A stretch of DNA of 64,000 nt from Enterobacterales bacterium (lineage in GTDB: Bacteria; Pseudomonadota; Gammaproteobacteria; Enterobacterales; GCA-002770795). Below, piece by piece: positions 44,510 to 63,760 of the stretch. The position numbers were made by a program, and so were the translations under genes. Location: contig JBFFIY010000001.1 in assembly GCA_041556195.1 (NCBI GenBank), positions 31,877-95,876 on the forward strand, given 5' to 3'. The number at the start of each line of letters is the position of its first letter. Positions within the stretch are counted from its first letter, which is position 1. The notes below the pieces were generated by a model, which made no database searches, was not told the origin of the DNA, and was given only the letters and a program-made list of their open reading frames with translations.

Positions 44510-45948
44510 TGTTTTTATCGCCGGATCTCACTCCGCTATCAGCGGAAATATTTATGCTGGTCATGGCCTGTGTGGTTATGATTGTTGATCTGTACTTTGC
44601 TGATGCTGAACACCGTCTTACTTATTGGATAACTCAATTATCATTAGTTGTTGCTATTTTTATATCTGTTGATCAGCTTTCAACAGAAACGGCAGTTCTT
44701 TTTGATGGCACTTATATCGTTGATTACTTGGCAGGGATCTTAAAGATAGGCATTTATGTATCGGCTATGATTGCCTTACTCTATGCTCGTGACTATATCG
44801 CTGAAAGGAAATTTTTGCGCGGTGAATACTACATGCTCGCATTGTTTGCCGTTTTGGGCATGATGGTAATGGTTTCGGCTCACAACTTATTGACTATCTA
44901 TCTGGGACTTGAACTATTGTCCCTGCCACTTTATGCCATGGTGGCGATGGAACGTAACAACGGCAATGCTGCAGAAGCAGCCATGAAATATTTTGTGATG
45001 GGAGCCATTGCTTCTGGTTTCCTACTTTATGGCATGTCTCTACTTTATGGTGCCACCCAAACCCTGGATATTGCTACTCTGTCACAAGCCGTTGCAAATG
45101 TTGGTGATAATCAATTAATGGTTAACTTCGCACTGATGTTTATTGTGGCAGGGCTGGCCTTTAAGTTAGGTGCTGTTCCTTTCCATATGTGGTTGCCAGA
45201 TGTTTATCATGGAGCGCCAACGGCAGTCACCCTGTTTATTGGTAGTGCACCAAAAATTGCCGCCTTTGGTATGGTTATTCGCCTGCTGGTTCAAGGTTTA
45301 GAGCCGCTGATAGAACAATGGCAAACACTGTTGATGATTATGGCAATTTTATCAATGGCAGTGGGTAACATAGTTGCCATTGCCCAGCTCAATTTAAAAA
45401 GAATGCTGGCCTATTCCACCATTGCTCATGTAGGCTATTTTCTAATGGGTATTATCTCTGGTACAGATGCAGGTTATGCCGCTTCAATGTATTACATCCT
45501 TATTTACGCATTGATGACACTGGCCAGTTTCGGAATGATTGTATTCTTATCAAGAGCAGGATTTGAATCAGACAATATTAGCGACTTTAAAGGATTAGCC
45601 AGGCGCAGTCCCTGGTATGCTGCAATGACACTGTTCACCATGATGTCACTCGCTGGTGTACCTCCATTCATTGGTTTCTGGCCTAAACTGGAAGTCATTA
45701 TGGCCGCAATCAACGGTGGTTTTTTGAATATGGCCATTTTCGCAGTAGTAATGTCACTTATAGGCGCATTTTATTACCTGAGAATAATCAAAGTTATGTA
45801 CTTTGAAGATGCAGAAGAAACCATGAAACCTATCGTAGTAGCATCCGATGTCCGTTTGTTAATGATAATGAATGGATTGGCGATGTTAGGCTTAGGGTTA
45901 GTACCTGGCTGGTTATTGCAATATTGTTTAACGGCATTTGGTGTTTAA
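44509..45948 (+). CDS. nuoN: NADH-quinone oxidoreductase subunit N
   Basis: GAVPFHMWLPDVYHGAPT, YSTIAHVGY. ATG 44509 (TAATG overlap, GGAG 10 nt upstream) is preferred to GTG 44500. Confidence 0.93.
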   Translation: MFLSPDLTPLSAEIFMLVMACVVMIVDLYFADAEHRLTYWITQLSLVVAIFISVDQLSTETAVLFDGTYIVDYLAGILKIGIYVSAMIALLYARDYIAERKFLRGEYYMLALFAVLGMMVMVSAHNLLTIYLGLELLSLPLYAMVAMERNNGNAAEAAMKYFVMGAIASGFLLYGMSLLYGATQTLDIATLSQAVANVGDNQLMVNFALMFIVAGLAFKLGAVPFHMWLPDVYHGAPTAVTLFIGSAPKIAAFGMVIRLLVQGLEPLIEQWQTLLMIMAILSMAVGNIVAIAQLNLKRMLAYSTIAHVGYFLMGIISGTDAGYAASMYYILIYALMTLASFGMIVFLSRAGFESDNISDFKGLARRSPWYAAMTLFTMMSLAGVPPFIGFWPKLEVIMAAINGGFLNMAIFAVVMSLIGAFYYLRIIKVMYFEDAEETMKPIVVASDVRLLMIMNGLAMLGLGLVPGWLLQYCLTAFGV

Positions 45949-45979
45949 ACTCAGAAAAACCATTTAAATTATAGAGTCA

Positions 45980-46007
45980 AAAAAACCGCATTTATTGCGG
46001 TTTTTTT
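45980..46007 (+). terminator. nuo operon terminator (copy 1 of a duplicated hairpin)
   Basis: aaaaaaccgca tttat tgcggttttttt. A near-identical sequence ccgcattcattgcggtttttta occurs at 59312-59335. Confidence 0.75.
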
Positions 46008-46103
46008 ATGCCAGTAAAAGTGTCTTAGTTTGTCATATATGTGCAGGGCTTTATTTTATACGATTACTTGAATATCTCCTAATGTATATATATACTTTTA
46101 GAT

Positions 46104-46376
46104 ATGTGGGAGATTTTAGAAAAGAAAACTGTAAAAAAAACACTTAGAAAAGCACCAAGGACGGTGCTTATCCGCTATGAGGCCTGGAAGAGAATTGTTG
46201 AACTAGAAGGTCCACAAGGGTTAAGGCTCATCAAAGGCTTTCACGATGAGTCACAGCAAGGTAACTGGAAGGGATTTCGGTCATCGCGCCCTGGGTTACA
46301 ATGGCGTGTGATTTATAAGGTAGCTAAGGGTGAATTACAAATATTTGTATTTGAGGTGAATCCGCATGAATATTAA
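46104..46376 (+). CDS. RelE/ParE-superfamily toxin (HigB-like gene order, toxin first)
   Basis: 90 aa. LKGFHDESQQGNWKGFRSSRPGLQWRVIYKV...IFVFEVNPHEY is typical of RelE-fold mRNA interferases. Overlaps the next gene by 11 nt. Confidence 0.7.
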   Translation: MWEILEKKTVKKTLRKAPRTVLIRYEAWKRIVELEGPQGLRLIKGFHDESQQGNWKGFRSSRPGLQWRVIYKVAKGELQIFVFEVNPHEY

Positions 46377-46623
46377 CGATTTTGAACCAGCAAAAGTTAA
46401 CGTTTCTATCACACCTGGCGAAATGTTAAAAACATTACGAGAACTTCAAGAGTTAACTCAAGATCAGTTAGCTCAGGCAACGGGTATTAGCCAGTCAAAC
46501 CTGTCTGGCATGGAAACTAACGCCAAAAGTATTGGTAGGGAACGCGCATTAATATTGGCCAAAGCACTCAAAGTACACCCTGCAGTGATACTTTTTCCTG
46601 ATTATCAGATCGAGGCGGCATGA
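46366..46623 (+). CDS. XRE-family HTH antitoxin (HigA-like)
   Basis: LTQDQLAQATGISQSNLSGMETN helix-turn-helix. 85 aa. Translationally overlapped with the toxin. Confidence 0.75.
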   Translation: MNINDFEPAKVNVSITPGEMLKTLRELQELTQDQLAQATGISQSNLSGMETNAKSIGRERALILAKALKVHPAVILFPDYQIEAA

Positions 46624-47234
46624 TGTCATTCTTTGTCTTCAACAAATATCTTGTCGGCACGGAAGTAGCTAACCTCAATTCGGAATAAGCCAGGCCGCTC
46701 AATACAGTGATTTTCGTACCTTTCTGCGTTAAGTTTATTCAAAATAGCCAGTTACCCCAAACATGGTAAGTTGGTAATATATTGATTTATATAGGTTGAA
46801 TTAAACTATGTCATGTCGAATTTTTAACTTTTTGTGTAGAAGAGAGCATAACTATTCAATAGATATTTAGGGTAAGTCTATGGCTGATCTCGGATTTTTG
46901 GATAATCGATAACTTAATGCAAGGTAGTTTGTTGAGTTGTCCAGAAGGTCGTTTATTGTACATTTGAGTTTTTAACGCTTATAGTGTTTATCCTCAGACT
47001 TCCTATTACAATGAGAGCACAAAGATTAAATTCCAATTTTTGATTTTGTTTGGAAAGGGAGTGTAATAGCAAGAACAGACAAACAAAACTGTTTGTTAGT
47101 CTTTAGTAAGTATAACTTGGGTTTGTGTTGGATTTACCAACAAGTCATTAGTTAATTGAGTTACACGAACTTATACTTTAAAGATATCTGGTTGAAGGGA
47201 TAGAGGAAAAAACAAGAATACTTCAAGGAAATTT

Positions 47235-47840
47235 ATGGAAATAACAGAAGATAAAAAAAATAACATTGAAATTGCTGAATTCATCAAACAAACAAAAAAT
47301 TTAGATTGGTCTAATCAGATTGATTCATTGAATACATTACATGATGAAACAATCAGATTGATTATGTATCAAATCGCTTACTATGATGGAATTCGCCAAA
47401 AGCATAAAAAATTGTCGAAGTGGCTACGGATAGGAATGCTCATTTTTGGCGCTTGTGGAATGATTTCACCCCTCGCTGAAGGAACACAGTTAAATTTTCT
47501 TTCCCCATATGGTTACATATTACTTGTAATTTCTGGCGTTTTTCTAACAGCAGACAAGCTGTTTGGTGGTACTTCAGGTCACATCAGATATTCAATGGTT
47601 TGGTTAAAACTTGAAAAACTTGTTGCATCAAGAAGTCTTAAATGGAATGAATTGATAAAAAACCATCAAAATTCCGCCGAAAAAAACCAGACAGAAAATA
47701 AAATGTTTCAGTTTATTGTTAAGACAATAGAAGAATTATACGCTCTTATTTTAAATGAAACATCCGAATGGGATCATGCCCTTACTTCGGCGATTGAGCA
47801 TGTTGGTAAACAGATAGGTTCTAAACAGAAGGAGATTTAG
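47235..47840 (+). CDS. SLATT-like two-TM effector/accessory protein (RdrD-like position)
   Basis: 201 aa: N-terminal helix, two adjacent TM helices (WLRIGMLIFGACGMISPLA; YGYILLVISGVFLTADKLFG), helical C-terminus. AAGGAA SD. Sits directly upstream of the ATPase/deaminase pair. Confidence 0.55.
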   Translation: MEITEDKKNNIEIAEFIKQTKNLDWSNQIDSLNTLHDETIRLIMYQIAYYDGIRQKHKKLSKWLRIGMLIFGACGMISPLAEGTQLNFLSPYGYILLVISGVFLTADKLFGGTSGHIRYSMVWLKLEKLVASRSLKWNELIKNHQNSAEKNQTENKMFQFIVKTIEELYALILNETSEWDHALTSAIEHVGKQIGSKQKEI

Positions 47841-48096
47841 TATCAGTTTTAATATTATTCTTTCTCTAATTTGGGCTCAAAAAGAGGCTTCAACAAAATA
47901 CTCGATAATTATTAATAATCTTTATCTGGTTCAGGATGACAACACTTTGAACCCCGCTGTTAAGAACAGAAATGGTTCTTTGTATTATCTGTATTGAGTT
48001 CAAAAATAAAAAAGATATAAATAAAAGATTTTTACTAGAAAGTAATGTTCAGCTACAAAAATACTTTAAATTTTATCGTATTAAAGGAGTTAGATT

Positions 48097-51000
48097 ATGG
48101 GAAATAATGCTAAAGGGCCTAAAATTGTTTTGGATCGCTCGCGTAGATCACGAGCATTTGGAGATGATGAACGATTATGGAAAGATGACCTCAAACGTTT
48201 GGTTGATATGATTAAGACCCATGTGGATAGTCTTGATAGTAAAGTCTCAGAAAAGAAAGATGAAATTACTGATGAAAAACCAACGTTAGCAATTGCCATT
48301 TTCAGCCCAGCAGGTTCCGGTAAGAGTAGTCTATTAAAAACTCTGGTTTACGAAGCTCAGAAAGAATTTAAAAATAAGCAAGAAAATTTAAAAAACGTCT
48401 CTTCACTCGACATTCTTCAACCTGCACGTTTTGGTGATAACGGTCAGTTGGTTTATGCAATGGTAGCAGCAGGTCTTAAAGCTCATAAAGAAAAACGCGG
48501 AGAAGATCTGGATTATGATGTTCTCACACCCCTTCTCAAGAAATACCGAGCTCTTTCAGACGATTTGCGTATCATTAGAGGAGATAAGATCTCTGATAAC
48601 CTGGAGTCGCATGAACTGACGACTGAAGTTGTTTTAAGACACACAAGTGGTCTGAATATCGGAAAAAAAATAGAAGCTTTTGTTAATGCCTTGGCCGATG
48701 ATTTAAATTCTGAAAGTAATAATAACTCAGTGGTTTTGCTACCAGTGGATGATTTGGATCTTGATCCTGAACAATTGATAAAGGGTCTGAGCCAGCTTCA
48801 AGCCTATTTGCGCCATCCACGATTAGTGCCCGTTTTTTGTTTTACTGATGGTTTGGCTGAGGATATTCTTTCAAACCATTATATTCAATCATTAAAGAGC
48901 GCAGATAGAAAACGCCGCAATAATGGACAAATGGAAGCAAGCGAGCAGTTGGCTATTCAATATTTATCCAAATGTTTTCCTGTTCGTACTCGCTTGAGAT
49001 TAGGGGCTGTTCCAGCGTCTTTACAAACGGGGCAACTCAAGAAGAACACTAGCGGGGAAGAGCAAGAACAAGTACTCCATCTATTATTGGCGGCCAGCTT
49101 TTTACTTTTTGGTGTGAGTGATCGTGAAGCTCGACACCCTGTTCGTGCTGTTCTTCGTCCATCAACAGTCCGCCGTCAGTTTCATATCATTGATTCGTTA
49201 GAACAAGCAGGAGTCAAGAAACTTATTTGTCAGCAGATAATAAAGTCATACGATTCAAACAGTCCATCTTATAATGAGCTCAAAAAATCTTTAAAGTTTA
49301 CACGAAAATATCCATGGGTAAATTATTTTGATCGGGCAGTTTGGGGGGTGTTAAATGTTCATCGAGACGTCATTCAGGAATACGGAATGCAAATGGAAGA
49401 TCTTTATAGCTGGTCCCCTTCAGCATTACGCCGTGTTCTTCTTGATGCCCTTCTTGAGCTACCAGATAAAATACAATTTGGACTCTGGCGTCGTTGGCGC
49501 AATATGACAGATAGTCGTCATAATCAGGTGATTTCTCTTTTAGCGGCTAATACTCACAGACCATGGTTAATAGGCGAACGACCCAGCGGAGAAGACTATA
49601 GCCAGCTCATGATTGCTAAACAGGAAAAAAACGGAGAGGATCCTAATAAAATTTATGGGACAATAGATGCTTATTTGGCATTGCTCTGGTTTGTGAATTT
49701 AACCTTGGGTTTTTATTTACCATTGAACCGTTCAGTTTTTCGGGAGTTGAGGGAATCAAAACACAACAAGGAACATTTGGGGGCAACAGGGTGGTCCCTC
49801 CATAACGCAGCCATCCAGGCAATTCAAACAGCAGATGAGGATCGCGAGTTTTTCCCCACAGGTATGCTGTTTCTTGACTCTATATCTTATGCGACGGCAT
49901 TGACAACAACACCCAGAATGAATGCTTGTTATATCTTAGATGGCGTTATTACAGAATGTGCTGAAGAAAAATTATCGCTTAAGAAAGCTAAGATTGAAAT
50001 TTTAAGTAGACGAACAAATGCATTGTTGGGAGAGTATAAAAAAAATCCTGCTGACGCGATAGCTTCTTTTACAAAAAAACTATCCTTGAAGACCAAGAAA
50101 ACAGATAAATGGCTTGAAGGTGTAATAGAAGAAGCACTTGAAGCATATAAAGTGGCTGCAGACTTTGAGATAAAAGGAAAATTAACTGAAGAAGAAGAAA
50201 AAACAGATAAAAAAGTTAATAAGAGTACTTCCTATAAGAAGATTGAAACACTTGTTGAGACTTATTTAAAAAAGCATGAGTACACCAAAGCTTATGGGTT
50301 TATAAAGGAAGAATTAGATGAGGATGGAGATATAACTAGTTCAGAAAAAGAAATAATCAAAAAAGAACTGATAGAACTTAAAACAAGAGTCACTAGCCTC
50401 AAAGCCACTGCAAGAATGGTTCACGATGATCAATTTTTATTAAGGGTATGGACATGTCATGGTTATAATCGAGGGCGGTTTTGGGCTGCGGTTTCATTAT
50501 GGCGAGGACTGGGTTTGATAGGAGAATTAATAGAGTCACATAGGAAGTGGCAATCTGAAAATTCTGATAAAAAAAAGAGCGATAAACAAGACGATTCTAC
50601 AACTGAAGGTTCAGATAAAAAAGCTACACCGGATGAAATAATGGTGAAAAACATCATTGGTATTTTACATTCCCACTCCTTGAAAGGTCTTGTTCCGGGT
50701 AAAGGTTTGAGCGAGCCGTCTAGTCGAAGAGACACTCTGGAGTTGGCATTTCCTCGTTGGAATACGAAAAATCAAAGAGATGCTATTTTGCGCCTTGCTG
50801 CCAGGTTAAAAAATTGGCTGGATAGTGCTTCAGAATTCAAAGTCGCTCCCTTACAACAAAATAGTCAGGAGAGTAAGTTGGACTGGGGTCAATGTTTTAT
50901 CCGCAGATTACAAGGTGAATATATTGCTGGATCGTTATGGCAGTGGTTGGATGTGGAGCATTTCGAATATCAGGGCGATCAATATAATAAAAATAGGCGT

Positions 51001-51906
51001 TCTCAATGGAATGCGGGGGTTGCCTTGACGAGTTGGATCCGAGTGCTTCAACGTTATTTTAAAGGAAACAATGAAATTCGTTGGTTGTTGGATACTTGCC
51101 CACTAACCAGTCCTTTTTTATCACGTTCAGGAAGCGGTTTTCTTCATGCTCAGCTAAGTGAAAAACCCTATATCAAAGTGTTGGGTTACGTTAAATCACT
51201 TATTGAGGATGATGCAAAAAAGGATGCTGCAAAAGAGGATGATGCAGAAAAAGATGATAAAAAAGAACCCGCACTCATAAGAAGTGCCCAACAATTTAGG
51301 AAAATGAATGTTGCCATATTAGAGCTTTGGAAAAAAGAATCTAGCTGGGGCTCACCTACAAATCCTACACGAGAAGAGGCTAATATTTTTGCGAAAGAGA
51401 TCATTAATAATTTGCTTGGTATTGGTAGTAAACCTGGAGCAGAAAAAGAAAGGCTGGAAAAAATTTTTGGTAGTCAGAACTATTTGAAATTTTTTGATGA
51501 AAAAATACAGAATAATGAAAAAAATCTAAAATATTTTATTAGATTGTTAGATATTGCTAAAAATGTAAAGCTTTCACTGAAAAAACACAATAAGAATACC
51601 GAAGAGTACAATGATAGCTTCAATGAGCATTATAAACGGAGTTTATTGGATTCTTTTAATCCAAGAGTTGTGGAATCAGGTATCAAAACAGATTCTGATA
51701 TGGGGGATCAAATAATTGATAGTGCCAATGATGTTCTTGACAGAAAATCTGTCTGTTTTGAACTGGCCAATATGATCCTACAGTATTTGAAGGTATCCAC
51801 ACATGCATCTGCAGCCAGTTTGTTTTATCAGATCCCTCGTGTGCGACGCAGTGATTTCTTTGATGAAGAAAAGAAGAAAGAAGCGGATAGTGAAACACAA
51901 CAATGA
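48097..51906 (+). CDS. rdrA: RdrA-like large P-loop ATPase (RADAR ATPase component), unusually long with K/E/D-rich insertions
   Basis: AAGGAG SD. Walker A FSPAGSGKSS (48304-48327). Walker B VVLLPVDDLD (48730-48759). 1269 aa. ATGA overlap with the downstream deaminase gene. Confidence 0.7.
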   Translation: MGNNAKGPKIVLDRSRRSRAFGDDERLWKDDLKRLVDMIKTHVDSLDSKVSEKKDEITDEKPTLAIAIFSPAGSGKSSLLKTLVYEAQKEFKNKQENLKNVSSLDILQPARFGDNGQLVYAMVAAGLKAHKEKRGEDLDYDVLTPLLKKYRALSDDLRIIRGDKISDNLESHELTTEVVLRHTSGLNIGKKIEAFVNALADDLNSESNNNSVVLLPVDDLDLDPEQLIKGLSQLQAYLRHPRLVPVFCFTDGLAEDILSNHYIQSLKSADRKRRNNGQMEASEQLAIQYLSKCFPVRTRLRLGAVPASLQTGQLKKNTSGEEQEQVLHLLLAASFLLFGVSDREARHPVRAVLRPSTVRRQFHIIDSLEQAGVKKLICQQIIKSYDSNSPSYNELKKSLKFTRKYPWVNYFDRAVWGVLNVHRDVIQEYGMQMEDLYSWSPSALRRVLLDALLELPDKIQFGLWRRWRNMTDSRHNQVISLLAANTHRPWLIGERPSGEDYSQLMIAKQEKNGEDPNKIYGTIDAYLALLWFVNLTLGFYLPLNRSVFRELRESKHNKEHLGATGWSLHNAAIQAIQTADEDREFFPTGMLFLDSISYATALTTTPRMNACYILDGVITECAEEKLSLKKAKIEILSRRTNALLGEYKKNPADAIASFTKKLSLKTKKTDKWLEGVIEEALEAYKVAADFEIKGKLTEEEEKTDKKVNKSTSYKKIETLVETYLKKHEYTKAYGFIKEELDEDGDITSSEKEIIKKELIELKTRVTSLKATARMVHDDQFLLRVWTCHGYNRGRFWAAVSLWRGLGLIGELIESHRKWQSENSDKKKSDKQDDSTTEGSDKKATPDEIMVKNIIGILHSHSLKGLVPGKGLSEPSSRRDTLELAFPRWNTKNQRDAILRLAARLKNWLDSASEFKVAPLQQNSQESKLDWGQCFIRRLQGEYIAGSLWQWLDVEHFEYQGDQYNKNRRSQWNAGVALTSWIRVLQRYFKGNNEIRWLLDTCPLTSPFLSRSGSGFLHAQLSEKPYIKVLGYVKSLIEDDAKKDAAKEDDAEKDDKKEPALIRSAQQFRKMNVAILELWKKESSWGSPTNPTREEANIFAKEIINNLLGIGSKPGAEKERLEKIFGSQNYLKFFDEKIQNNEKNLKYFIRLLDIAKNVKLSLKKHNKNTEEYNDSFNEHYKRSLLDSFNPRVVESGIKTDSDMGDQIIDSANDVLDRKSVCFELANMILQYLKVSTHASAASLFYQIPRVRRSDFFDEEKKKEADSETQQ

Positions 51907-54827
51907 GCCGTTCTGAATTACCCCTCAAAGTTTTGAGTTTATTAGGGCCTATTTTATCCTGGGTGGAAGGGAGTGCAGCAACAGCAGTGCCCGAAGCATG
52001 GAAGGATAAAATTAGCAATGACAATATTAGAAGCCTAGCTTTTCAGTCTGATAATCAGCTCATCAGTTCATTGCAACAACGAGCCTGGTTGTTGCATGAA
52101 TTACCGACTTACTCCCTGGATAATGTGGATGAAATTATGGCTCTGTCTGGTCGGCCTAAGCCTTCTATGCCCGACAGTGCTCTATGGCTGCCGCTAAATA
52201 AGCAACTCAATCCTCCAACTGATTATAATTTGATTAATGTATTTCACCAATTAGCTCAGCGCTATCTTTGTTGGAATGGCAGTGAGGTAGTGATTAAAGG
52301 AAAGCACGTAATAGAGCTGCATGCACTTGGTTTACGTATGCCGCTTTCATTTATGGTGCAACATTTTTATGCTTGCTCGGTTGCCAGTGGAGAAAAAAAA
52401 CTGGAAGATGTTTCTGCATTGATTGAATCCATTAATCTGCTTTCTTCAAATTCAAGATCTATAAGTAATGTTATCAATAAGGGGCTCAGTGAGGGGCATC
52501 TTCATCTCAATTCAATCCATGCAACTGAAAATTCCTGGGCGGATCACCTGCTACTACCGATAGACACTCGGCCTAAACAATTCAGCGTAGTCGATTGGCG
52601 TTTATTGCGTTTTGGACGTGCGGTGGCTCGGACTCTGGCACTGGCAACTACTCTGGTTCGTGCTAATATTGAGATTTCTGCACAGGATGGTATAGCAATC
52701 CATAATGCTTTGGACAACATGTATTGTGCGAAAGATTTATCTTCAATGGAGGAATTTGAGCGACAACATCAAATATATTTTGATAATATCGTTCAAGATC
52801 CAAAGTTTTTTGGTGACTTAAGCTCAGTTGATAATTTGCCTGATGGGGAGTTTTTTTCAGACGGTTTTTCCAGAAGAAAGGTTAAAGGTCAGCGTTTCGG
52901 GTTATTTTATTGGCTGGATCCCTGGCGTCAAACAAACTGGCCAGTTTTTAATGATAACTCGAAGTACCCTAAGCTAAATAATTCCAATAAACGTAGGCGC
53001 TTTATTTCTAATTTGCATTTAGTTAGCCATTTGGCACTTTTACAAACCCCGCCAATAACGCATACCTGTGACAACTCTCATGATCAACATGATACAAAAA
53101 ACCATGCTACAGGCCGTTTTTTACACCGTTCGTTGTTCAGATATCTGATTGCGCAAACTCATCACTGGCAACAGGCTGTACAACAGGGACGAACCACTGG
53201 TTTACGTAATTTCAAAGTCTATTTTGATAGTAATCAACGAAACCCAATAGAGCCTACTGTCAGAGAAAATGCCGAGGCAGTCTTTAAGCAGATCAGCCAT
53301 TGGCAAGGTCTTGATGTGCTGGAAGGCCGAGTTAGCCCTCCCAGGATTCCAGCCAAAGATCTGCTTCCCTGGATCCAGGAATTTGTCAGAAAAATCAAAA
53401 ATGGGAATAAAATAAAAAAATTTGGCTTAGTGATTCATTTTATCAAAGACGAGGAACCCAAAAGTCATCGAGACGATTCATCAATACGGCTGGCTAGGTA
53501 TGGTTTATTACGTAAGAGATATCGGAGTGAAGCATTCCATCTTTATCATATTTTAAAAAAATCTTCTGTAGAAAATCCATTTATTGTTGGTATAGATGCT
53601 GCCAATCTTGAACTTGCAACACCTCCCGAAGTGTTTGCTCCTATATTTCGTTTTTTACGTGATGAGCCCATAGAAATACTTCGGCCTCAACGATTTGATA
53701 GTAATTTTGGAGATAACAAAAAGCTTCATTTGGCGATTAAACATTTGGTGCGACACAGGCATCTTGGTATGACTTATCACGTTGGTGAAGAATTCAGACA
53801 TATTTTATCAGGACTCAGAGCAATCGATGAAGTTTTAGAGTTCCTTAATCCCCGATCTGGTGACAGGATTGGGCATGGGATAGCTTTAGGATTAGAGCCA
53901 AAAGTATGGTTAGAGCAAACAGGATATCAGGCACTGATGCCTAAGCAGGAGTGGCTCGATACCCTCGTCTGGATTTTCCATTATCTGGGTTCGGGTGACG
54001 AACAGGTTAAAAGCTTAAATATAGAATATGAAATTGAGCGCCTTGCACGGGAGATTTATCAGCATGGAGGCGAGGATTCAAAAAACTCCATTAACCCTCA
54101 TTTATTATGGAATGCCTGGCTTCTTCGGCAACTTGATCCTGGATCTATTTACCTGGACGAAAAACTCAATAGTTTCCAATTTCAACCTTTAACTGGAGTA
54201 GATGCCGAAGCCTGGCGGTGGAACCGTATTACAAACAAAATAGTTAATGAAATTAATGAAAAAGTAGGAAATAATCCACCTTCTAAGCTTTTGAGCCAGT
54301 ACTGGTGTGATGCTAAAGTACGAGCCGCAGGTAACAAATTATGTCTGATTGATATGGAAGATGAGTCTGAGAATTGGCTTGAAATATGCCGAAAAGCACA
54401 AAAAATAATGCAAAATCGAGTGATTAAGCGTCAAATGGTTGTAGAAGTAAATCCATCATCTAACTTTAGTATCGGATCGATGAGTCGTTTTACAGAACAT
54501 CCTATTTTTAATATGGTATTTGATCACGAGGGAAATTGGCAACGCCGTTTGCGAGTTACTATCAACACAGATAACCCTGGAACTGCCAATACAAGTCTAT
54601 CCCATGAATATTATTTGCTGGGAGAGGCTCTCATGGGCATGGGACGACCTGAAAGCGAGGTCCTTGAATGGCTTGAATGGTTACGTCAATGTGGAGAAGA
54701 GAGCTCGTTTGTTCGCCACTTGCCAGAAATTGAGCACTGGGCTATGAAGACTGTTGTTGCTGAAATCAGAAAAACATTTCCAGGAAAGGATGGTATCTTT
54801 AAATGGTATAAATCAGAAAATAAATAA
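51903..54827 (+). CDS. rdrB: RdrB-like divergent adenosine deaminase (RADAR effector)
   Basis: All ADA-fold motifs in the canonical order: GHLHLN (HxH, 52497-52505), YHVGEE (53778-53789), DRIGHG (53862-53879), VNPSSN (54447-54464), NTDNPG (54564-54581). 974 aa. Confidence 0.75.
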   Translation: MSRSELPLKVLSLLGPILSWVEGSAATAVPEAWKDKISNDNIRSLAFQSDNQLISSLQQRAWLLHELPTYSLDNVDEIMALSGRPKPSMPDSALWLPLNKQLNPPTDYNLINVFHQLAQRYLCWNGSEVVIKGKHVIELHALGLRMPLSFMVQHFYACSVASGEKKLEDVSALIESINLLSSNSRSISNVINKGLSEGHLHLNSIHATENSWADHLLLPIDTRPKQFSVVDWRLLRFGRAVARTLALATTLVRANIEISAQDGIAIHNALDNMYCAKDLSSMEEFERQHQIYFDNIVQDPKFFGDLSSVDNLPDGEFFSDGFSRRKVKGQRFGLFYWLDPWRQTNWPVFNDNSKYPKLNNSNKRRRFISNLHLVSHLALLQTPPITHTCDNSHDQHDTKNHATGRFLHRSLFRYLIAQTHHWQQAVQQGRTTGLRNFKVYFDSNQRNPIEPTVRENAEAVFKQISHWQGLDVLEGRVSPPRIPAKDLLPWIQEFVRKIKNGNKIKKFGLVIHFIKDEEPKSHRDDSSIRLARYGLLRKRYRSEAFHLYHILKKSSVENPFIVGIDAANLELATPPEVFAPIFRFLRDEPIEILRPQRFDSNFGDNKKLHLAIKHLVRHRHLGMTYHVGEEFRHILSGLRAIDEVLEFLNPRSGDRIGHGIALGLEPKVWLEQTGYQALMPKQEWLDTLVWIFHYLGSGDEQVKSLNIEYEIERLAREIYQHGGEDSKNSINPHLLWNAWLLRQLDPGSIYLDEKLNSFQFQPLTGVDAEAWRWNRITNKIVNEINEKVGNNPPSKLLSQYWCDAKVRAAGNKLCLIDMEDESENWLEICRKAQKIMQNRVIKRQMVVEVNPSSNFSIGSMSRFTEHPIFNMVFDHEGNWQRRLRVTINTDNPGTANTSLSHEYYLLGEALMGMGRPESEVLEWLEWLRQCGEESSFVRHLPEIEHWAMKTVVAEIRKTFPGKDGIFKWYKSENK

Positions 54828-54911
54828 GATGGTAAGACTGCACAATATTTTTGGGTATCTATATATCTATAGTTTATATAGTGCTTATTTCAAAATATCA
54901 TCAAAATAACT

Positions 54912-55199
54912 ACAAGCAACATTTAATGAATTGATACGTCATTAACATGCTTAGTAGCAATTAACCCCCATTTATTGGTTTTAAGGAAAAAACATGAATC
55001 CAGATCTTACAAAAATAGGACGTTTTGATTGTTCATTTATAATAGTTATGATCAGGGATTTTTCCTGGTATTACTAGCAGTTGTGTTGTTTGAACTGGGC
55101 CTGCGATTTGTCATAGTTCTCTATGAATTTAACTACCCTCAGCAAAAAGAGACAGCCCAAATAGCCGAAGATCTGGCAGTAGATGTAGTTAATATTATG
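54912..55199 (+). repeat. Direct repeat, copy 1 (~288 bp): diverged duplicate of the promoter and 5' end of the 59429 gene
   Basis: Aligns with 59348-59635 at roughly 85-90% identity by manual alignment, including a 50-nt perfect core ttgtttgaactgggcctgcgatttgtcatagttctctatgaatttaacta. Confidence 0.9.
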
Positions 55200-55334
55200 G
55201 CTAATAAAAAATCCAATTCAAGTCCGGATTCAACTATAACAACACCAGCGATGCGCATTGGATTGGCGGACCAAGTTTTTGACGGAAGTGGTATATTAAA
55301 CTTCAACCTATATAAGAAAATTTTAAGTGTTTAA
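54994..55334 (+). pseudogene. Frameshifted, 3'-truncated fragment of the HAMP-domain gene (paralogous to 59429-60652)
   Basis: ATG 54994 gives MNPDLTKIGRFDCSFIIVMIRDFSWYY*. A T5 run versus T6 in the intact copy shifts the frame. The homologous frame continues as track ORF 55029-55334, then diverges after ..VDVVNIM. Confidence 0.8.
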
Positions 55335-55644
55335 TAAAAATATAAGAGGGATTCAAATGAATACTGGGGATTATAAAAAATACATCAAGGGAATCTTTGA
55401 TAATGTCTTTGTTTATAGCTTAATTGACACATTTTTCACCATACTTTATGCCAATTCATAATTGGGGGGGTAATATTTCTGTATACATTTGCAATTGGTG
55501 ATAGCTCGTTAATACGGGAAAAGCACATCTTAGTATCAGTTCAAATTTTTCTTGGTATTTATTTTTTTGTGATTTCAATTACTTCTCTTAACGCTTATAT
55601 AAAGTTTAAAAGGAACTTTGGAACCTCAAAGCAGGAATGAACCA

Positions 55645-58221
55645 ATGTTTGAACATATAAAGCAGGCACTGGAAAGAGAGGCTACTAGAGAAAGTCAGCA
55701 GGTAATCGACTCGATGAAAAACAGTGACTATCTCGCGATTTCCCATCACATTTCTTCTTTAATAATCGCTATTGTAGCTTTTTGTTTGATCGTGACAGCT
55801 GTGAGCATTTCAAGCCAAAAGGGTAGTGGCTCAGTCATCGGTTATGGATTGCTGCTAGTTGCTGCATTATTAGTTCTATTTCATGAAGCTAATAAGCGAA
55901 GAGTTAGTTATATAAACAAATATGCTTATCTAATTATCAGGATTAAGTGTTTTTGGATAAGACATTGGTATGCTGATTATTTAGCTAAGTATTTTTGGGT
56001 TAGTTTCGCTTTACTAATAATTATATTGGGAGCATTGCTACTGACACATGTTACAGGACAGAACGGGTGGGTTTTGCCAGAAGTTTATCAAGGTGAAAAA
56101 TTTTCTTCGTCAGTAAATATGGTCATAACTACCGCATCTGGGCTGCTCGCGGCTCAAATAGCTCTGTTTAGTTTCATGATGCAGCAAGTGCTAAGTAAAT
56201 ATTCTGGAGTTGTCGCTCAAACCGTTGCTAGCCATAGAGTATTTAAATTGCTAGCTCTTTTTCCTGCCTTAGGGTTATTAATTCCATTTGTGCTGCATAA
56301 CTTTGGTGCTCCTAAGTCGATTGAAAGTCAAATACTGCCAGTCATTGGTTTCATGTTGTTCTTAGGCCTTTTATTAACAGTCATGGTAGCCAAATCAGGA
56401 TTGAGTGAAAATCTTACCATTAGATACTTTGGTGTAGCCTCGTCAAATAAGCTTGTTAAAGCAATACCAACTCCTCTTAAAATGAATTCAAATTTTGCAA
56501 AGCGTTTGTGGAGGACTTTACATTATTTAGGATTAGATTTTAGAAATAAAGACCGTTTTCAAATTATCAATGTACCAGCAAACGGATCAAATATAACTAT
56601 GGAGTCGTTAAGTGCTGCATTAGGTGTAGCCAATAAGGCAGTAGTAGAAGGACAGCATGATGTCTTCGTTTCCAGTTTGATATCAATAGAAATAATTATG
56701 AAGGCCTATGCTGTTAGGCGAAAATTATATTGCAGCAGTGAAGATGAAGTGTTTATCTACCTGAATTATCAATTTGCCGCGCTAATAGAGTTGACGGCAA
56801 AAATTCCTAATCAATATTTAATATCCAATTTAACTAGTTCAATTGGCAAAACTGCAAAATTAACGTATTGCGTTGGTAACATACCAGAAGAGTTAGTTGA
56901 GGAGCACCATCATGAGAATGCTAATAACTTTGCAACTGCATTATGGATGGGGTTACTAGTCCAAAGCTTTGAACATACGCACACTCTGACCAGGAGCACA
57001 GCTGCACACGCCTCATTAAGACAAATGTCCGAAATAGCAAGCACATCTATTGCTAACAAAGATTCAGACTTAATAACCATTACTTACCTACCTTCAGTAA
57101 AGAAAGTATTTGCACAGTGCGTTGTAAGAATAGCGGACGCATATCATAAAGATCTAGCTGGGCAATGCCTAATAAATTTAATGTCGAATTTGATGAATAT
57201 TACGTTTTATCGAGATTCACTAAGGGGAACACATCAAGACTCTTTTGAAGAGGTATTAAACCATATCACTGAACTATCAAACCTTTATTTAACAGCCGAC
57301 TCAATGGGATCAATAACTCTAAATGACCCATTAAATATAGTCCTTAGCAAAACAGCCGAAAACCAATGTTGCATTCAAGAAGTATTTTTCATGATTGCTA
57401 ATAAAAAAATCAGCAATACTCACTCCTATCGAGTTGCCGTATCCGATATGGAAAAAATTGTTGATGAACTAGCGACTATGGGATGGTTTGCCGTAAATGC
57501 TAATGTATATACATCGGCATATTATTTAGAGGCTCTTTTTGAAATCCTTTATATAGTAACTAGAGGACTACCTAGTAAATTCGAAGAGTTTGATCAACTT
57601 GAAGTGCAGCAAAGAGCCCCGTTCGGGCTACCAGAAAATTCAATATCTACAGAACAAAGGCTGATTGAACATATATGCAATAAGTTAAATGAATTGGCTA
57701 CACTTTTCTATCAGTCACAACGAATGACTATAGATTGGCAACAGTCAGTGTATTCATCAATTGGTATATTGATATTGCGCTATGCCGAATGCCAAGAAGA
57801 ATTTATAAAAAGTAAAATTTCAGAAACAGTTCACATCATATATTCGCTTGTAAGATCTGACATTGAGTCCGGAAATCGGACTCAATACGATAGTGAAAAA
57901 TACCTTCAATTAGCAGCAGCCTGGATGAAATATTATGAAATAGATAATGACCTGACTGTCGAGATTGAAAATTTTCTAGCTAATAACAGAGGATACTATA
58001 GAGGTTATGGCGGCTCGCGGGAAAGGTATGGCTTATTCGGTTACCCAACGTTACAGCACTATGATTTTTACCTATATCCCCTAAAAAACATACGCCATCC
58101 ACAGATAATGTCTGAAGAGCATTGGCAAAATTTTAGAGATTTCGGTAATCGATTAGTAAACGATGATGTTCTTTTGCCGTTTGCTAATAACCTTAGGGAA
58201 ATGGCCGAAAATTTAGCTTAA
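55645..58221 (+). CDS. Large polytopic membrane protein of unknown function (about 6 N-terminal TM helices + ~570-aa helical soluble domain)
   Basis: ATG 55645 (AGGA upstream) is preferred to the track's TTG at 55618. TM helices include LIIAIVAFCLIVTAVSI, VIGYGLLLVAALLVLF, MVITTASGLLAAQIALFSFMM and ILPVIGFMLFLGLLLTVMVA. No catalytic motif recognised. Confidence 0.6.
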   Translation: MFEHIKQALEREATRESQQVIDSMKNSDYLAISHHISSLIIAIVAFCLIVTAVSISSQKGSGSVIGYGLLLVAALLVLFHEANKRRVSYINKYAYLIIRIKCFWIRHWYADYLAKYFWVSFALLIIILGALLLTHVTGQNGWVLPEVYQGEKFSSSVNMVITTASGLLAAQIALFSFMMQQVLSKYSGVVAQTVASHRVFKLLALFPALGLLIPFVLHNFGAPKSIESQILPVIGFMLFLGLLLTVMVAKSGLSENLTIRYFGVASSNKLVKAIPTPLKMNSNFAKRLWRTLHYLGLDFRNKDRFQIINVPANGSNITMESLSAALGVANKAVVEGQHDVFVSSLISIEIIMKAYAVRRKLYCSSEDEVFIYLNYQFAALIELTAKIPNQYLISNLTSSIGKTAKLTYCVGNIPEELVEEHHHENANNFATALWMGLLVQSFEHTHTLTRSTAAHASLRQMSEIASTSIANKDSDLITITYLPSVKKVFAQCVVRIADAYHKDLAGQCLINLMSNLMNITFYRDSLRGTHQDSFEEVLNHITELSNLYLTADSMGSITLNDPLNIVLSKTAENQCCIQEVFFMIANKKISNTHSYRVAVSDMEKIVDELATMGWFAVNANVYTSAYYLEALFEILYIVTRGLPSKFEEFDQLEVQQRAPFGLPENSISTEQRLIEHICNKLNELATLFYQSQRMTIDWQQSVYSSIGILILRYAECQEEFIKSKISETVHIIYSLVRSDIESGNRTQYDSEKYLQLAAAWMKYYEIDNDLTVEIENFLANNRGYYRGYGGSRERYGLFGYPTLQHYDFYLYPLKNIRHPQIMSEEHWQNFRDFGNRLVNDDVLLPFANNLREMAENLA

Positions 58222-58276
58222 CCTACTAAAAAATGAATACTAAATTATACGGCTAGCGAAAGAAGAGTGGATTTTT

Positions 58277-59167
58277 ATGGAATTAGCGACGATTAACAAA
58301 GAATTGGAAATGATCAATAGTGAACTTTCTGAAAGAGACGTACCTATTCATGCGCGTCCAATCCATGCAATTATGGAATTTGGTAAAAAACACAAATTAT
58401 CTCTCCCTATTGTTTCTACTGGAAGATCTTCTGCTGATAATAATTACCCAATTGAAAATGAATATATTACTGATGCCATTCATGCTTGGTATGAAAACAT
58501 GTATTCAGATTCATTAAAAATTGCGCCTGATATTGGAAAAACGCTTGTTCTTGTAAATGGCGACCCAATGGCTATGAGACTTCCATTGATCTATGGACAG
58601 TGTGAGATACAGTGGGATATTATTAAAACGGGGATTACAGGTGCAAAAGGATTTAATAAGGGGCCCAATATTCTAAATGTGATAGATGTTATTGATGGGC
58701 TTACTATTACAATGGCTAAAAATATTAGCCATGATGCAGCAAGAAACATTGTGCATTGGTTTCTTCAATCCTACGAAACACATAACTTTATTACCAATTT
58801 AGACCAGGCATTAGTCAAACAGGCTCTAACAGACTTAAAAGACGCTGTTTCGCATATAACTAGCCAACTTGCTAATTATGGGCAAGCTCGCTGGTCAACC
58901 CTTCAAGCCTGTGAAAAGTTGATGAAAGCCTACATGGTAGATAAAGAAATTCCTTATAGAAACGGTCACTATCTGGAAAAAGTTGCAAAAAATGCTGAAA
59001 TTGATTCTAAAGAAATGCTGTCTTTGTTGCCAGATATTCAATGTCCTGCAAGTGTTAGATATGGAGAAGTAAAACCGACCAAATTAGAGGCAATTAAGGC
59101 ATACCAATCCACAATGGTTTTCTTATCTTACCTGGTAAAAATGTGGCCGGTTAAAGGTTGTACGTAG
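58277..59167 (+). CDS. Unknown protein with a HEPN-like C-terminal domain
   Basis: The C-terminal ~70 aa follow the classic HEPN layout: DLKDA..., QACEKLMKAYM (58904-), GHYLEKVA (58964-), VRYGE (59054-59068). The N-terminal ~190 aa are unrecognised. Confidence 0.5.
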   Translation: MELATINKELEMINSELSERDVPIHARPIHAIMEFGKKHKLSLPIVSTGRSSADNNYPIENEYITDAIHAWYENMYSDSLKIAPDIGKTLVLVNGDPMAMRLPLIYGQCEIQWDIIKTGITGAKGFNKGPNILNVIDVIDGLTITMAKNISHDAARNIVHWFLQSYETHNFITNLDQALVKQALTDLKDAVSHITSQLANYGQARWSTLQACEKLMKAYMVDKEIPYRNGHYLEKVAKNAEIDSKEMLSLLPDIQCPASVRYGEVKPTKLEAIKAYQSTMVFLSYLVKMWPVKGCT

Positions 59168-59310
59168 TAAGTGTTTGTATTTATATAACTAATTGAATGA
59201 ATTTTGATTTGAAATAGTGCTACTTCAAGTAAATATTCGCAATAAAATCAATAAGTTTATAAATTGAAAAAGCCGACGCATAATGCATCAGCTCCAAGTT
59301 CAGTAAATAG

Positions 59311-59336
59311 CCCGCATTCATTGCGGTTTTTTATGT
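59311..59336 (+). terminator. Terminator hairpin, duplicate of the nuoN terminator
   Basis: cccgca ttcat tgcgg + T6. 59312-59339 matches 45986-46013 with 2 mismatches and 1 indel by eye. Confidence 0.7.
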
Positions 59337-59347
59337 CCAAAAAACCA

Positions 59348-59635
59348 ACAAGCAACATTTAATGAGTTGATACGTCAGTAACATGTTTCGTAGTAATTAA
59401 CACCATTTTATGCTTATAAGGAAAGAACATGGCGCCAGATTTTACAAAAATAGGACGTTTTGACCGTTCATTTATAGTAGTTATGATCAGGGATTTTTTC
59501 CTGGTCTTATTGGCTGTCGTATTGTTTGAACTGGGCCTGCGATTTGTCATAGTTCTCTATGAATTTAACTATCCTCAGCAAAAAGAAACTGCACAGGTGG
59601 CCGAAGACCTGGCTGTTGATGTAGTTAACATTATG
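59348..59635 (+). repeat. Direct repeat, copy 2 (native promoter and 5' end of the HAMP gene)
   Basis: Partner of 54912-55199. Confidence 0.9.
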
Positions 59636-60652
59636 CGTAATAAGGGCGGACCGGTAGCCTCTAGTACATTTTACCCAATATTGAAAAAAAATCACGAAGC
59701 TATAGGTTATGAAGTTTCCATAGAACCGTCGGACGAAACCGTATCATCCATAGAAAAAATATTTAGTTTTACCCCAAGAGGTATTCCAGCCGAATGGTCT
59801 ATAGGCAAATTTCATGAAGAAACCGTTGAAATACGTGCGGATAAATTTTGTTTATCTTGTCACATTGATGCTAAATTAGGTGCTGTTTTAGGAAAAATAA
59901 AAGTTAGAAGTTACCTAAGCCATCATCTTGAGAGTTGGTGGGCCGAAGTGGGTTTAACCGCTGTATTAGGTTTGGGTAAAATATTATTTCATACCACCAT
60001 TTTATTCTTTTTATTAAAAGTTAGAATGGAACCCATGTTATCTTTACGTTCAGTGGTGGCATCCCTGGCAAAAGCAGGGGCAGATCTACATCATCGTGCT
60101 ACATTAAGATCTGAAGATGAGTTTTCCGAACTTGCCCGTGACTTAAATCACTTCCTTGATCGTTTGTGTTTAATATTGGAAGATGTTGGTAACGTATTAG
60201 AAAAAATTACAGTGTTAAATTTACGATTAACTCAGGTTAACTCTCAAATAGAAAATAAATTTGAAGTTATTCAGGGGTTATCTCAACAAGCAAACAAAGT
60301 GATGTTTGAAGGAAACACGCGTTTACCTCTGTTATCGTTTGAGTGGAAAAATTCAATGCAATTGGCGTTAACTATGTTAAAAAATTCAATAGATGATCCT
60401 GAAAAACTTGTAGAATTTGATATTAAAATGGAACAAATCTGGCAGCAGTTTGACGCAACAGCAGCTCAACTGCAAAATTTGAATCAGAGCCACAATAAAG
60501 CGAGTGAAGGGTTAACTCATATGAATTCAGAGTTACATGATTTTGAGCATTACCTGACAGAAATGAGTCATCTTGAAGAAAAAATGGAAAATATTTCTGA
60601 GCAGGGACAAAAATTAATCAATAGGTTAACTGGAAAATCAATTGAGTCATAA
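59429..60652 (+). CDS. Membrane protein with a CxxCH-containing periplasmic loop, HAMP domain and C-terminal coiled coil
   Basis: TM1 FFLVLLAVVLFELGLRFVIVL. FCLSCHIDA (CxxCH). TM2 LTAVLGLGKILFHTTILFFLL. HAMP-like MEPMLSLRSVV...EDEFSELARDLNHFLDRL. Confidence 0.65.
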   Translation: MAPDFTKIGRFDRSFIVVMIRDFFLVLLAVVLFELGLRFVIVLYEFNYPQQKETAQVAEDLAVDVVNIMRNKGGPVASSTFYPILKKNHEAIGYEVSIEPSDETVSSIEKIFSFTPRGIPAEWSIGKFHEETVEIRADKFCLSCHIDAKLGAVLGKIKVRSYLSHHLESWWAEVGLTAVLGLGKILFHTTILFFLLKVRMEPMLSLRSVVASLAKAGADLHHRATLRSEDEFSELARDLNHFLDRLCLILEDVGNVLEKITVLNLRLTQVNSQIENKFEVIQGLSQQANKVMFEGNTRLPLLSFEWKNSMQLALTMLKNSIDDPEKLVEFDIKMEQIWQQFDATAAQLQNLNQSHNKASEGLTHMNSELHDFEHYLTEMSHLEEKMENISEQGQKLINRLTGKSIES

Positions 60653-62335: not shown

Positions 62336-62788
62336 ATGAATACTAAACAAAGTAGTGAAACCAAAGGTTTCGATTTTTCAAAAAAGCATAAAGTCTCCGT
62401 GTGGGTATCTCAGAACCCCTATGAAACAATTCCAGATGAATACTTCGAAGAAAACTTTAATCATAAAGAAACCCGTGCCACCAATCAATGGTCAGATAAT
62501 TTTAAAATGAATTATTTTAACCCGGAAAACATGGAAACCAATGGTGCACAAGAAGGTACAGTATCGATCAAACAAGCCGCTGGACAATGCTCATTTTCTT
62601 CATCATATATTGATGTATTAATGAGCAAATCGAGAAAAAAGAATCTGGAAGATGTTAGCTGGATTGTTTTGTTGTTTGAATATGAATACAGCATGAAAAC
62701 CACAGGTATAGAGAAAGATGAATACCTGACTTTCTTGGGAGCTTTTGATTATGATGAAGAAGCGGAAAATGTTTATGAAGTTGAATAA
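62336..62788 (+). CDS. Imm22-like polymorphic-toxin immunity protein (orphan)
   Basis: KVSVWVSQNPYETIPDEYFEENF...SDNFKMNYFNPENME follows the pattern I recall for Imm22 proteins (vS.W.G.f.s.eel.eY.e...f..dF.i.y.d.d..E). Confidence 0.5.
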   Translation: MNTKQSSETKGFDFSKKHKVSVWVSQNPYETIPDEYFEENFNHKETRATNQWSDNFKMNYFNPENMETNGAQEGTVSIKQAAGQCSFSSSYIDVLMSKSRKKNLEDVSWIVLLFEYEYSMKTTGIEKDEYLTFLGAFDYDEEAENVYEVE

Positions 62789-63391: not shown

Positions 63392-63760
63392 ATGATTGAT
63401 TTTAATAATAAAGGTTTTTTTAAGCTAAAACAAAATGATGAATATGCAGATAAAATTAGTGCTCTGTAAATAGAAGGCGAATCTATCATCGATTCGTATA
63501 AATCGATGCGTGATGGAGTGATATTCACAAATAAAAGAATTATTTCAGTAAACGTTCAAGGAATTACAGGAAGTAAAAAAGATTTCACATCATTGCCGTA
63601 CAAAAATATTGTTGCATATTCCATTGAAACATCTGGAACTTTTGATCTTGATGCTGAACTTGAAATATATTTTTCATCGATTGGAAAAATAAAGTTCGAA
63701 TTTAAAGGCAATGCAGATATCGCCAATATATCGAAGCATATTTCACAACATCTATTGTAA
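63392..63760 (+). pseudogene. Bacterial PH-domain (YokE-like) protein interrupted by an in-frame TAA
   Basis: ATG 63392 (GAGGAGG SD) and track ORF 63506-63760 are in the same frame. The only break is TAA at 63467-63469 (..KISAL*IEGESIIDSYKSMRDGVIFTNKRII..). Confidence 0.6.

Follow-up and report, generated by a model that had tools for sequence, protein, structure and literature searches.

What is encoded by the three co-oriented genes that follow nuoN in an Enterobacterales bacterium (assembly GCA_041556195.1, contig JBFFIY010000001.1, positions 31,877 to 95,876 of the forward strand), a stretch of 64,000 nucleotides (nt) that we refer to as the window and in whose coordinates all positions are given? 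An earlier reading made from the sequence alone (the sequence-only reading) had taken them for a divergent three-gene module resembling RADAR, whose defining feature is that rdrA and rdrB are encoded in tandem. Profile searches, profile-profile comparison, predicted folds, active-site alignment, gene adjacency and homology of the accessory gene all upheld this reading. The region is very probably a SLATT-associated RADAR anti-phage system with rdrD-, rdrA- and rdrB-like genes that belongs to a deeply divergent uncultured lineage and lies, together with a RelE/HigA-like pair, on an 8.9-kb cargo behind the nuoN terminator. We regard it as a new and so far unannotated lineage of a known defence system, not as a new kind of system. 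The coordinates given earlier for the three open reading frames (ORFs) were exact, all three lie on the plus strand, and the start/stop overlap and all Walker and deaminase motifs that had been quoted are present at defined positions, as follows:

47235-47840, plus strand: rdrD-like accessory gene for a SLATT_2 membrane protein of 201 amino acids (aa), assigned by Pfam and NCBIfam SLATT_2
48097-51906, plus strand: rdrA-like gene for an AAA+ ATPase of 1269 aa, assigned by PADLOC, NCBIfam, hhalign and Foldseek
about aa 15-330 of the rdrA-like protein: ATPase domain
aa 70-78 of the rdrA-like protein (nt 48304-48330): Walker A, SPAGSGKSS
aa 212-221 of the rdrA-like protein (nt 48730-48759): Walker B, VVLLPVDDLD
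aa 624-763 and about 1033-1173 of the rdrA-like protein: lineage-specific lysine/glutamate (K/E)-rich insertions in the helical C-terminal region
51903-51906, plus strand: ATGA start/stop overlap of the rdrA-like and rdrB-like genes (translational coupling), read from the sequence
51903-54827, plus strand: rdrB-like gene for an adenosine deaminase of 974 aa, assigned by PADLOC, NCBIfam, PDB, hhalign and Foldseek
rdrB-like motifs: GHLHLN, aa 198-203; YHVGEE, aa 625-630; DRIGHG, aa 654-659; VNPSSN, aa 849-854; NTDNPG, aa 888-893
rdrB-like key residues: HxH at aa 199/201; H626 and E629; H658; D890-N891

Profile searches with RADAR models, a check that the sequence-only reading had proposed, returned both core proteins: the rdrB-like protein matched both PADLOC RdrB models (E 7e-34 and 4e-29) and the rdrA-like protein matched PADLOC RdrA over aa 22-325 (E 2.4e-10). 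The best NCBIfam family of the rdrB-like protein was RdrB (NF041744), at 199.6 bits and below the cut-off of 800, and a plain sequence search of the PDB matched it to E. coli RdrB (8fnv/8fnw, E 1.8e-25). Its identity to canonical RdrBs is about 25-32%, with BLAST-level matches in the C-terminal half only. Comparison by hhalign of a profile of the 87-member clade with canonical proteins (sampled as 51 RdrBs and 39 RdrAs) aligned 787 columns at a probability of 100% and an E-value of 9.1e-86, spanning clade positions 49-948, indicating that the homology to RdrB is essentially full-length. The AlphaFold2 (AF2) model of the rdrB-like protein (predicted local distance difference test, pLDDT, 88; predicted template modelling score, pTM, 0.91) was likewise placed by Foldseek next to RdrB 8hr7/8fnv, at an E-value of 5.6e-24 and a target-based template modelling (TM) score of 0.70-0.74, the next class of matches being ordinary adenosine deaminases at about 1e-5. 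This comparison of predicted models with the published structures had also been proposed, and RdrB and RdrA chains came out on top for the respective protein.

Mapping of the active site by phmmer alignment to 8fnv showed that H199, H201, H626, H658 and E629 of the window protein fall on H152, H154, H498, H530 and E501 of E. coli RdrB, of which the four histidines form the Zn tetrad and E501 is the catalytic glutamate according to the cryo-electron microscopy paper. All five published RdrB active-site residues are thus aligned, bearing out the assignment of the motifs to an active site of the adenosine deaminase (ADA) type. Across an alignment of 87 deaminase sequences H199, H201, H626, E629 and D890 are invariant and H658 is at least 90% conserved; in the ATPase, D218/D219 are invariant and G73-S78 at least 90% conserved among 66 sequences. 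Since their columns are invariant or nearly so across homologs, the motifs are not chance matches. Together, sequence alignment and the predicted model make the 974-aa deaminase a full-length homolog of RdrB with the same predicted fold, the published Zn-binding histidine tetrad and the catalytic glutamate.

Analysis of the ATPase revealed similarity to RdrA that sequence methods detect at the N-terminal end and structure prediction extends along the chain. RdrA (NF041743) was its best NCBIfam family, at 64 bits against a cut-off of 600 and over residues ~20-330 only, and hhalign of the clade ATPases with the canonical RdrAs gave a probability of 99.5% and an E-value of 8.5e-23 over columns 16-329 only, the insertion region included. 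RdrA was not detectable when the ATPase was searched by sequence against PDB chains, which returned only low-complexity matches (a DDAKKDAAK linker, CD3 constructs). A 15-nt tandem repeat within the rdrA-like gene (51205-51264) encodes the low-complexity stretch DDAKKDAAKEDDAEKDDKK, which accounts for these spurious matches to artificial linkers in the CD3 constructs. The AF2 model of residues 1-1200 (pLDDT 81.7) had RdrA as all of its top 20 PDB matches in Foldseek (E 6.6e-13 to 1.7e-8), followed by ClpX at 1e-2, and the alignments ran over ~1100 columns and the whole 834-aa RdrA chain with a target TM score of up to 0.63, which exceeds what the ATPase domain alone, about 45% of the RdrA chain, could yield. 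From this extent and score we infer that the overall two-part architecture of RdrA is kept in the 1269-aa protein. Such a pattern has a precedent, as conservation of RdrA is confined to the ATPase domain and the C-terminal lobe is conserved in structure, not in sequence, between E. coli and S. suis. Moreover, a helical stretch of the model (118-203) separates beta-2 from the Walker B strand, at the site of the published RdrA crown. By sequence the protein thus has an AAA+ domain of the RdrA type with intact Walker A and B, and by its model an RdrA-like overall fold.

The two core genes are always adjacent in this lineage and often translationally coupled. Wherever a clade locus has enough flank, the gene directly upstream of the deaminase encodes an ATPase of the window's type, and the 4-nt overlap in which the TGA of the rdrA-like gene and the ATG of the rdrB-like gene form ATGA is common to six further clade loci (L002, L007, L011, L022, L024 and L028), that is, to seven loci with the window included.

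Homolog searches recovered 66 relatives of the ATPase and 86 of the deaminase. No ATPase relative is called RdrA and no deaminase relative RdrB by any source, the few named deaminase relatives being labelled 'adenosine deaminase' or 'hypothetical protein'. The set has a sharp edge: E-values of the deaminase relatives jump from 1e-121 to 3e-18, and in an exhaustive hidden Markov model (HMM) search with the ATPase profile over 1.84 billion cluster representatives, 111 representatives scored at E <= 1e-30, ~65 of them matching at full length, and the matches beyond the clade, which are canonical RdrAs, cover only positions ~5-330 at no more than 115 bits. Among 185,579 GTDB species-representative genomes we found 26 clade loci (L004-L029), ~18 of them in Acidobacteriota and others in, for example, Alteromonadaceae, Haliangium and a 'Proteobacteria' metagenome-assembled genome (MAG). 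All 26 members are MAGs and none is a cultured isolate, which may be the reason that neither experiments nor annotation have so far taken notice of the lineage. The remaining 54 retrieved loci are of the canonical RADAR type, with 24-32% identity over a match that lies mainly in the C-terminal half of the query, and the nearest relative of the window deaminase, at 58% identity, is in an Alteromonadaceae MAG. As judged from these sequences, the genes belong to a discrete, small and sharply bounded RADAR lineage, and it is the lineage that is new.

Current annotation misses this lineage, NCBIfam scores being far below cut-off, PADLOC being only partial for RdrA and the proteins being left unnamed by every source. 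Several ATPases of canonical RADAR loci are likewise missed by the PADLOC RdrA models, and the NCBIfam thresholds too pass over other RADAR-type ATPases. RADAR is therefore probably under-called by current tools; it has been reported in <1% of genomes (270 of ~38,000; PMC9994260), and the present lineage shows that it is under-counted in environmental bacteria. As side observations, large proteins in the rdrA position of the canonical-looking loci L034 (3775-6981), L079 (3598-6924) and L082 (4076-6868) have no match to PADLOC's two RdrA models, and one of eight plasmid RdrB-type genes is annotated as rdrB.

The small upstream gene had been read as a SLATT protein, and here the curated cut-offs were exceeded: the 201-aa protein matched Pfam SLATT_2 at 38.9 bits (E 1.1e-9, cut-off 25) and NCBIfam SLATT_2 at 72.2 bits (cut-off 40). 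It shares 25% identity (E 1e-21) with a SLATT_2 protein encoded directly upstream of rdrA in a canonical locus (L082, Methylococcaceae MAG), and the gene is homologous to the one beside canonical RADAR; in clade locus L013 a SLATT_2 protein is also found upstream of the ATPase, in the same position as in the window. SLATT-associated RADAR is one of three published subtypes (Gao et al. 2020), and RdrD has been described as an auxiliary, putatively pore-forming protein. At least six clade loci carry instead an unrelated protein of ~220 aa with four transmembrane helices and a conserved 'FVELLVIGFG' N-terminus, upstream or downstream of the pair, and two or three further loci have different small transmembrane proteins. 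Since SLATT_2, the four-helix family and other small transmembrane proteins alternate among the clade loci, the membrane partner seems to be recurrent yet interchangeable.

The four-helix family (~200-260 aa, N-terminus MTTTHLFVELLVIGFGALAW) adjoins the RADAR-like pair in Acidobacteriota MAGs, at the following positions:

L002, 7313-7927: four-helix membrane protein gene
L006, 11000-11602: four-helix membrane protein gene
L009, 3870-4535: four-helix membrane protein gene
L011, 826-1500: four-helix membrane protein gene
L020, 1900-2568: four-helix membrane protein gene
L024, 11127-11774, minus strand: four-helix membrane protein gene
L019, 4054-4836: also a gene of this family

The members scanned had no Pfam, PADLOC or NCBIfam family (the scan of the L011 protein was with NCBIfam only, and L019 lay outside the scans). 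We considered whether the Acidobacteriota accessories are SLATT or Csx27-like proteins and rejected this, as the L002 protein has no similarity to the window SLATT protein and the accessories examined matched no family; they are better described as an unknown four-helix family, which may be a new class of RADAR accessory.

The sequence-only reading had considered the copy atypical in the length of both core proteins, in the ~195 aa upstream of HxH and in the Asn of its TDNP motif. As to length, this was true of the ATPase and not of the deaminase. At 974 aa the deaminase is within the canonical range (mean of the 51 sampled RdrBs 935 aa, most of them 780-995 aa), whereas the 1269 aa of the ATPase compare with 830-1175 aa in the sampled canonical RdrAs. 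The excess is due only to lineage-specific insertions at residues 624-763 and ~1033-1173, K/E-rich, helical and low-complexity stretches of ~226 aa in total that are found in fewer than 30% of clade members. The position of HxH turned out to be ordinary, with clade sequences at a median of residue 187 and canonical RdrBs at 203. Neither is TDNP exceptional, with 51 Asn against 34 Asp in the clade and SDNP in 3 of the 51 canonical RdrBs. The possibility that TDNP marks an inactive or degenerate enzyme was rejected, the other catalytic residues being invariant and Asn being fixed in a large intact sub-clade.

Several observations weigh against the assignment to RADAR. Both core proteins score far under the NCBIfam equivalog cut-offs (64 against 600 and 200 against 800 bits), and the C-terminal ~900 aa of the ATPase have no sequence or profile similarity to canonical RdrA (probability 0.1%), the likeness in this part coming from a predicted model with TM scores of 0.5-0.63 and a root-mean-square deviation of 8-14 Å. 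Clade members were not found in the phage records, IMG/VR contigs and plasmids searched, so that there is no direct sign of mobility. A gap of 256 bp lies between the SLATT gene and the rdrA-like gene, and in roughly half of the 23 non-redundant clade loci small membrane genes are missing within 1 kb. Finally, the Asp that contacts the purine N7 is Asn in the window deaminase. With respect to the scores, the NCBIfam thresholds are annotation cut-offs tuned to close relatives, and the lineage is outside the curated equivalogs and inside the superfamily; known RADAR systems are themselves only 22-28% identical to each other, so deep divergence is expected for this family. That the genes form a regulated purine-metabolism module, in which an ATPase controls a housekeeping adenosine or AMP deaminase, would agree with a catalytic core of the ADA/AMP-deaminase superfamily and is nevertheless hardly credible: models of housekeeping adenosine deaminases gave 37 bits against cut-offs above 200 (Add, TIGR01430, 37.1 against 216.55, aa 837-907 only), RdrB surpasses every ADA as a structural match by ~18 orders of magnitude, and the genes sit in a low-GC insertion with a toxin-antitoxin pair, are absent after nuoN in related genomes and have a rare and patchy distribution (26 of 185,579 species representatives). 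The Asn residue raises another possibility, namely a RADAR-derived system in which Asp-to-Asn exchange retunes the pocket from ATP/dATP (adenosine and deoxyadenosine triphosphate) to another purine nucleotide, such as an adenine analogue that is modified or specific to phages. MAPDA, a related deaminase, has its Asp296 hydrogen-bonded to the purine N7 and is inactive as D296A, the substitution there being Ala, and a coherent sub-clade of ~46 sequences that includes the window is uniformly Asn, its sister group being mostly Asp with scattered Asn. We consider such a shift very unlikely, since the Asp/Asn counts given above reflect several exchanges within the clade and fit a near-neutral replacement, while the metal ligands and the catalytic Glu are all unchanged. 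On chemical grounds Asn is still able to donate a hydrogen bond to N7. The repeated exchange favours near-equivalence of the two residues and disfavours inactivation.

The place of the SLATT gene in the system is a separate matter. It could be an independent neighbour, either an effector in its own right or what is left of another system, with the rdrAB pair as the only functional unit; the 256-bp gap holds weak promoter-like sites, the membrane gene is missing from the loci counted above, and RADAR in E. coli, C. rodentium and S. suis works with two genes. Independence is unlikely, however, as no terminator-like site was found between the co-oriented SLATT and rdrA-like genes, the upstream position is taken by SLATT_2 genes in clade locus L013 and in canonical locus L082 as well, and rdrD is a published RADAR component. 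The different small membrane protein found in its place in other clade loci also points to selection for a membrane partner.

For the preferred reading, a SLATT-associated RADAR system, a mechanism can be proposed by analogy with E. coli RADAR (PMC9994260). The RdrA-like protein would assemble into a ring, which in E. coli is a heptamer, and dock via its helical 'crown' insertion, helices 118-203 of the model, onto a shell of the RdrB-like protein (a dodecamer in E. coli). Upon phage infection the complex would deaminate ATP and dATP to ITP and dITP (inosine and deoxyinosine triphosphate), which would poison nucleotide pools and block phage replication, the C-terminal helical lobe of RdrA being the likely phage sensor. 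The SLATT protein would probably add or amplify a membrane-permeabilising, abortive-infection output, as has been proposed in the literature. We also entertain a more speculative and quite unlikely scheme, in which the membrane accessory serves as an exchangeable output module under the control of the RdrA-RdrB machine or of the product it makes, ITP/dITP being a signal as well as a poison, and in which the Asp/Asn alternation could also tune the nucleotide that is converted. If true, RADAR would work in two stages, the deamination of nucleotides setting off the permeabilisation of the membrane. The occurrence of alternative membrane accessories on one core is a natural comparison and could make the role of the accessory testable. 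Likewise, sequences as remote as these, in which the catalytic residues are kept at a structure-based identity to E. coli of 10-18%, help to tell what is essential from what is lineage-specific in RdrA and RdrB. The lineage leaves the picture of how RADAR works unchanged.

Among known systems, SLATT-associated RADAR (Gao et al. 2020; e.g. 'RADAR2' of Pluralibacter gergoviae) has the three components found in the window, namely the SLATT accessory, the AAA+ ATPase RdrA and the deaminase RdrB, and likewise encodes rdrA immediately upstream of rdrB; the likeness to P. gergoviae RADAR2 is by component types, not by its RdrD sequence. It differs in that the core proteins of the window fall into a separate clade and RdrA is alignable in the ATPase domain only. 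The E. coli P0304799.3 system (8fnt, 8fnv, 8fnw, 8hr7, 8hr8) is the best structural match for both core proteins, sharing the aligned histidine tetrad and catalytic Glu, Walker A and B, and a helical insertion at the RdrB-docking crown site. However, RdrB reaches a structure-based identity of 18% and RdrA one of 10-12%, the window RdrA has K/E-rich insertions, helical or of low complexity, that add ~226 aa, and GSDDPG in E. coli corresponds to NTDNPG in the window. The E. coli system has no accessory gene, and its assemblies have been seen, while the window system is known from its genes and monomer models. Cad1, a CARF-fused adenosine deaminase of type III CRISPR that is reported to convert ATP to ITP, is another defence-associated enzyme of the ADA fold acting on ATP, which by analogy would also be the substrate of the window deaminase. 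The resemblance is weak and local, around the C-terminal TD(D/N)P strand (PADLOC CARF_ADA, E 1e-9, only aa 836-908; PDB 9c67, E 0.057). Unlike Cad1, the window has no CRISPR context, no CARF domain was found in the rdrB-like protein by Pfam and NCBIfam scans, the similarity is limited to ~70 residues, and control would be, by analogy, by a separate AAA+ ATPase instead of cyclic oligoadenylate. The housekeeping deaminases (Add/ADA, ADAL/MAPDA, AMPD) have the same amidohydrolase TIM-barrel catalytic core and the same motif order; their chains are shorter by a factor of 2.5 to 3 (ADA, adenine deaminase and MAPDA have ~310-370 aa), they lack the RdrB-specific insertions and have no partner ATPase, and the window deaminase matches them at a Foldseek E-value of ~1e-5, compared with 6e-24 for RdrB, and far below the NCBIfam cut-off.

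The genes had been assigned to an island after nuoN, and we found nuoM and nuoN directly upstream, followed by a terminator hairpin, and a drop in GC content from ~0.42 to 0.32-0.41 across the island. The features of the island that flank the RADAR-like genes are the following:

45979-46006, plus strand: nuoN terminator hairpin, 28 nt, left boundary of the cargo, with an 86% identical copy at 59305-59332 (direct repeat D8)
46104-46376, plus strand: RelE-like toxin gene (NCBIfam RelE_StbE, 31.5 bits, cut-off 27.9)
46366-46623, plus strand: HigA-like helix-turn-helix (HTH) antitoxin gene overlapping the toxin gene (NCBIfam HigA-type HTH, E 6e-7; Pfam HTH_3, E 2.8e-12)
54902-55207, plus strand: right boundary of the RADAR cargo, 306 nt, an 85-88% identical copy of 59338-59643 (direct repeats D1-D3)
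55618-58221: gene for an 867-aa protein with about seven predicted N-terminal transmembrane helices and a large soluble C-terminal region
58277-59167: gene for a 296-aa, weakly HEPN-like protein (Pfam, E 1e-4, 22.9 bits, cut-off 22)

The segment at 54902-55207 is a copy, with a 1-nt frameshift, of the promoter and first ~72 codons of a HAMP-domain gene, the encoded proteins being identical at 48 of 50 positions. The ORF at 55029-55334 had to be considered as a fourth component and was rejected, because its sequence is left over from the 5' end of the HAMP gene and carries the frameshift. The diverged duplicates thus bound the RADAR cargo at 46007-54901 (8.9 kb), which contains the RelE/HigA-like pair, the SLATT gene and the rdrA-like and rdrB-like genes. 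We take the RelE/HigA-like pair to be a co-inserted neighbour and not a RADAR component. The HTH protein also matches the PADLOC regulator models HTH_VI and CapH-like, and might instead regulate the transcription of the RADAR-like system.

A second cargo (55208-59304) is separated from the RADAR cargo by the HAMP-gene remnant. Apart from the weak Pfam HEPN match, its 867-aa and 296-aa proteins had no match in PADLOC, NCBIfam or PDB sequences and are without known relatives, and the two genes are a candidate for an uncharacterised defence pair beside RADAR. The diverged duplicates that flank two distinct cargo segments point to the interval from nuoN to the HAMP gene as a hotspot of insertion or recombination. 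Judged by its NuoL, which is 77-82% identical to that of Aeromonadales and Gammaproteobacteria MAGs, the host of the window is an uncultured gammaproteobacterium. In related genomes nuoN is followed by housekeeping genes, and the RADAR module is lacking there; at this NuoL identity the genomes are too far removed to display an empty nuoN-HAMP site. An Rfam scan of 45900-59500 gave one sub-threshold chance match only, and the intergenic regions held no notable small ORFs. Downstream, past the kynureninase gene (60705-61979), an 'Immunity protein 22' gene (DUF4284, E 1.5e-28) lies at 62336-62788 and a bacterial PH-domain gene at 63506-63760, which hints at polymorphic-toxin immunity genes near the downstream side of the island.

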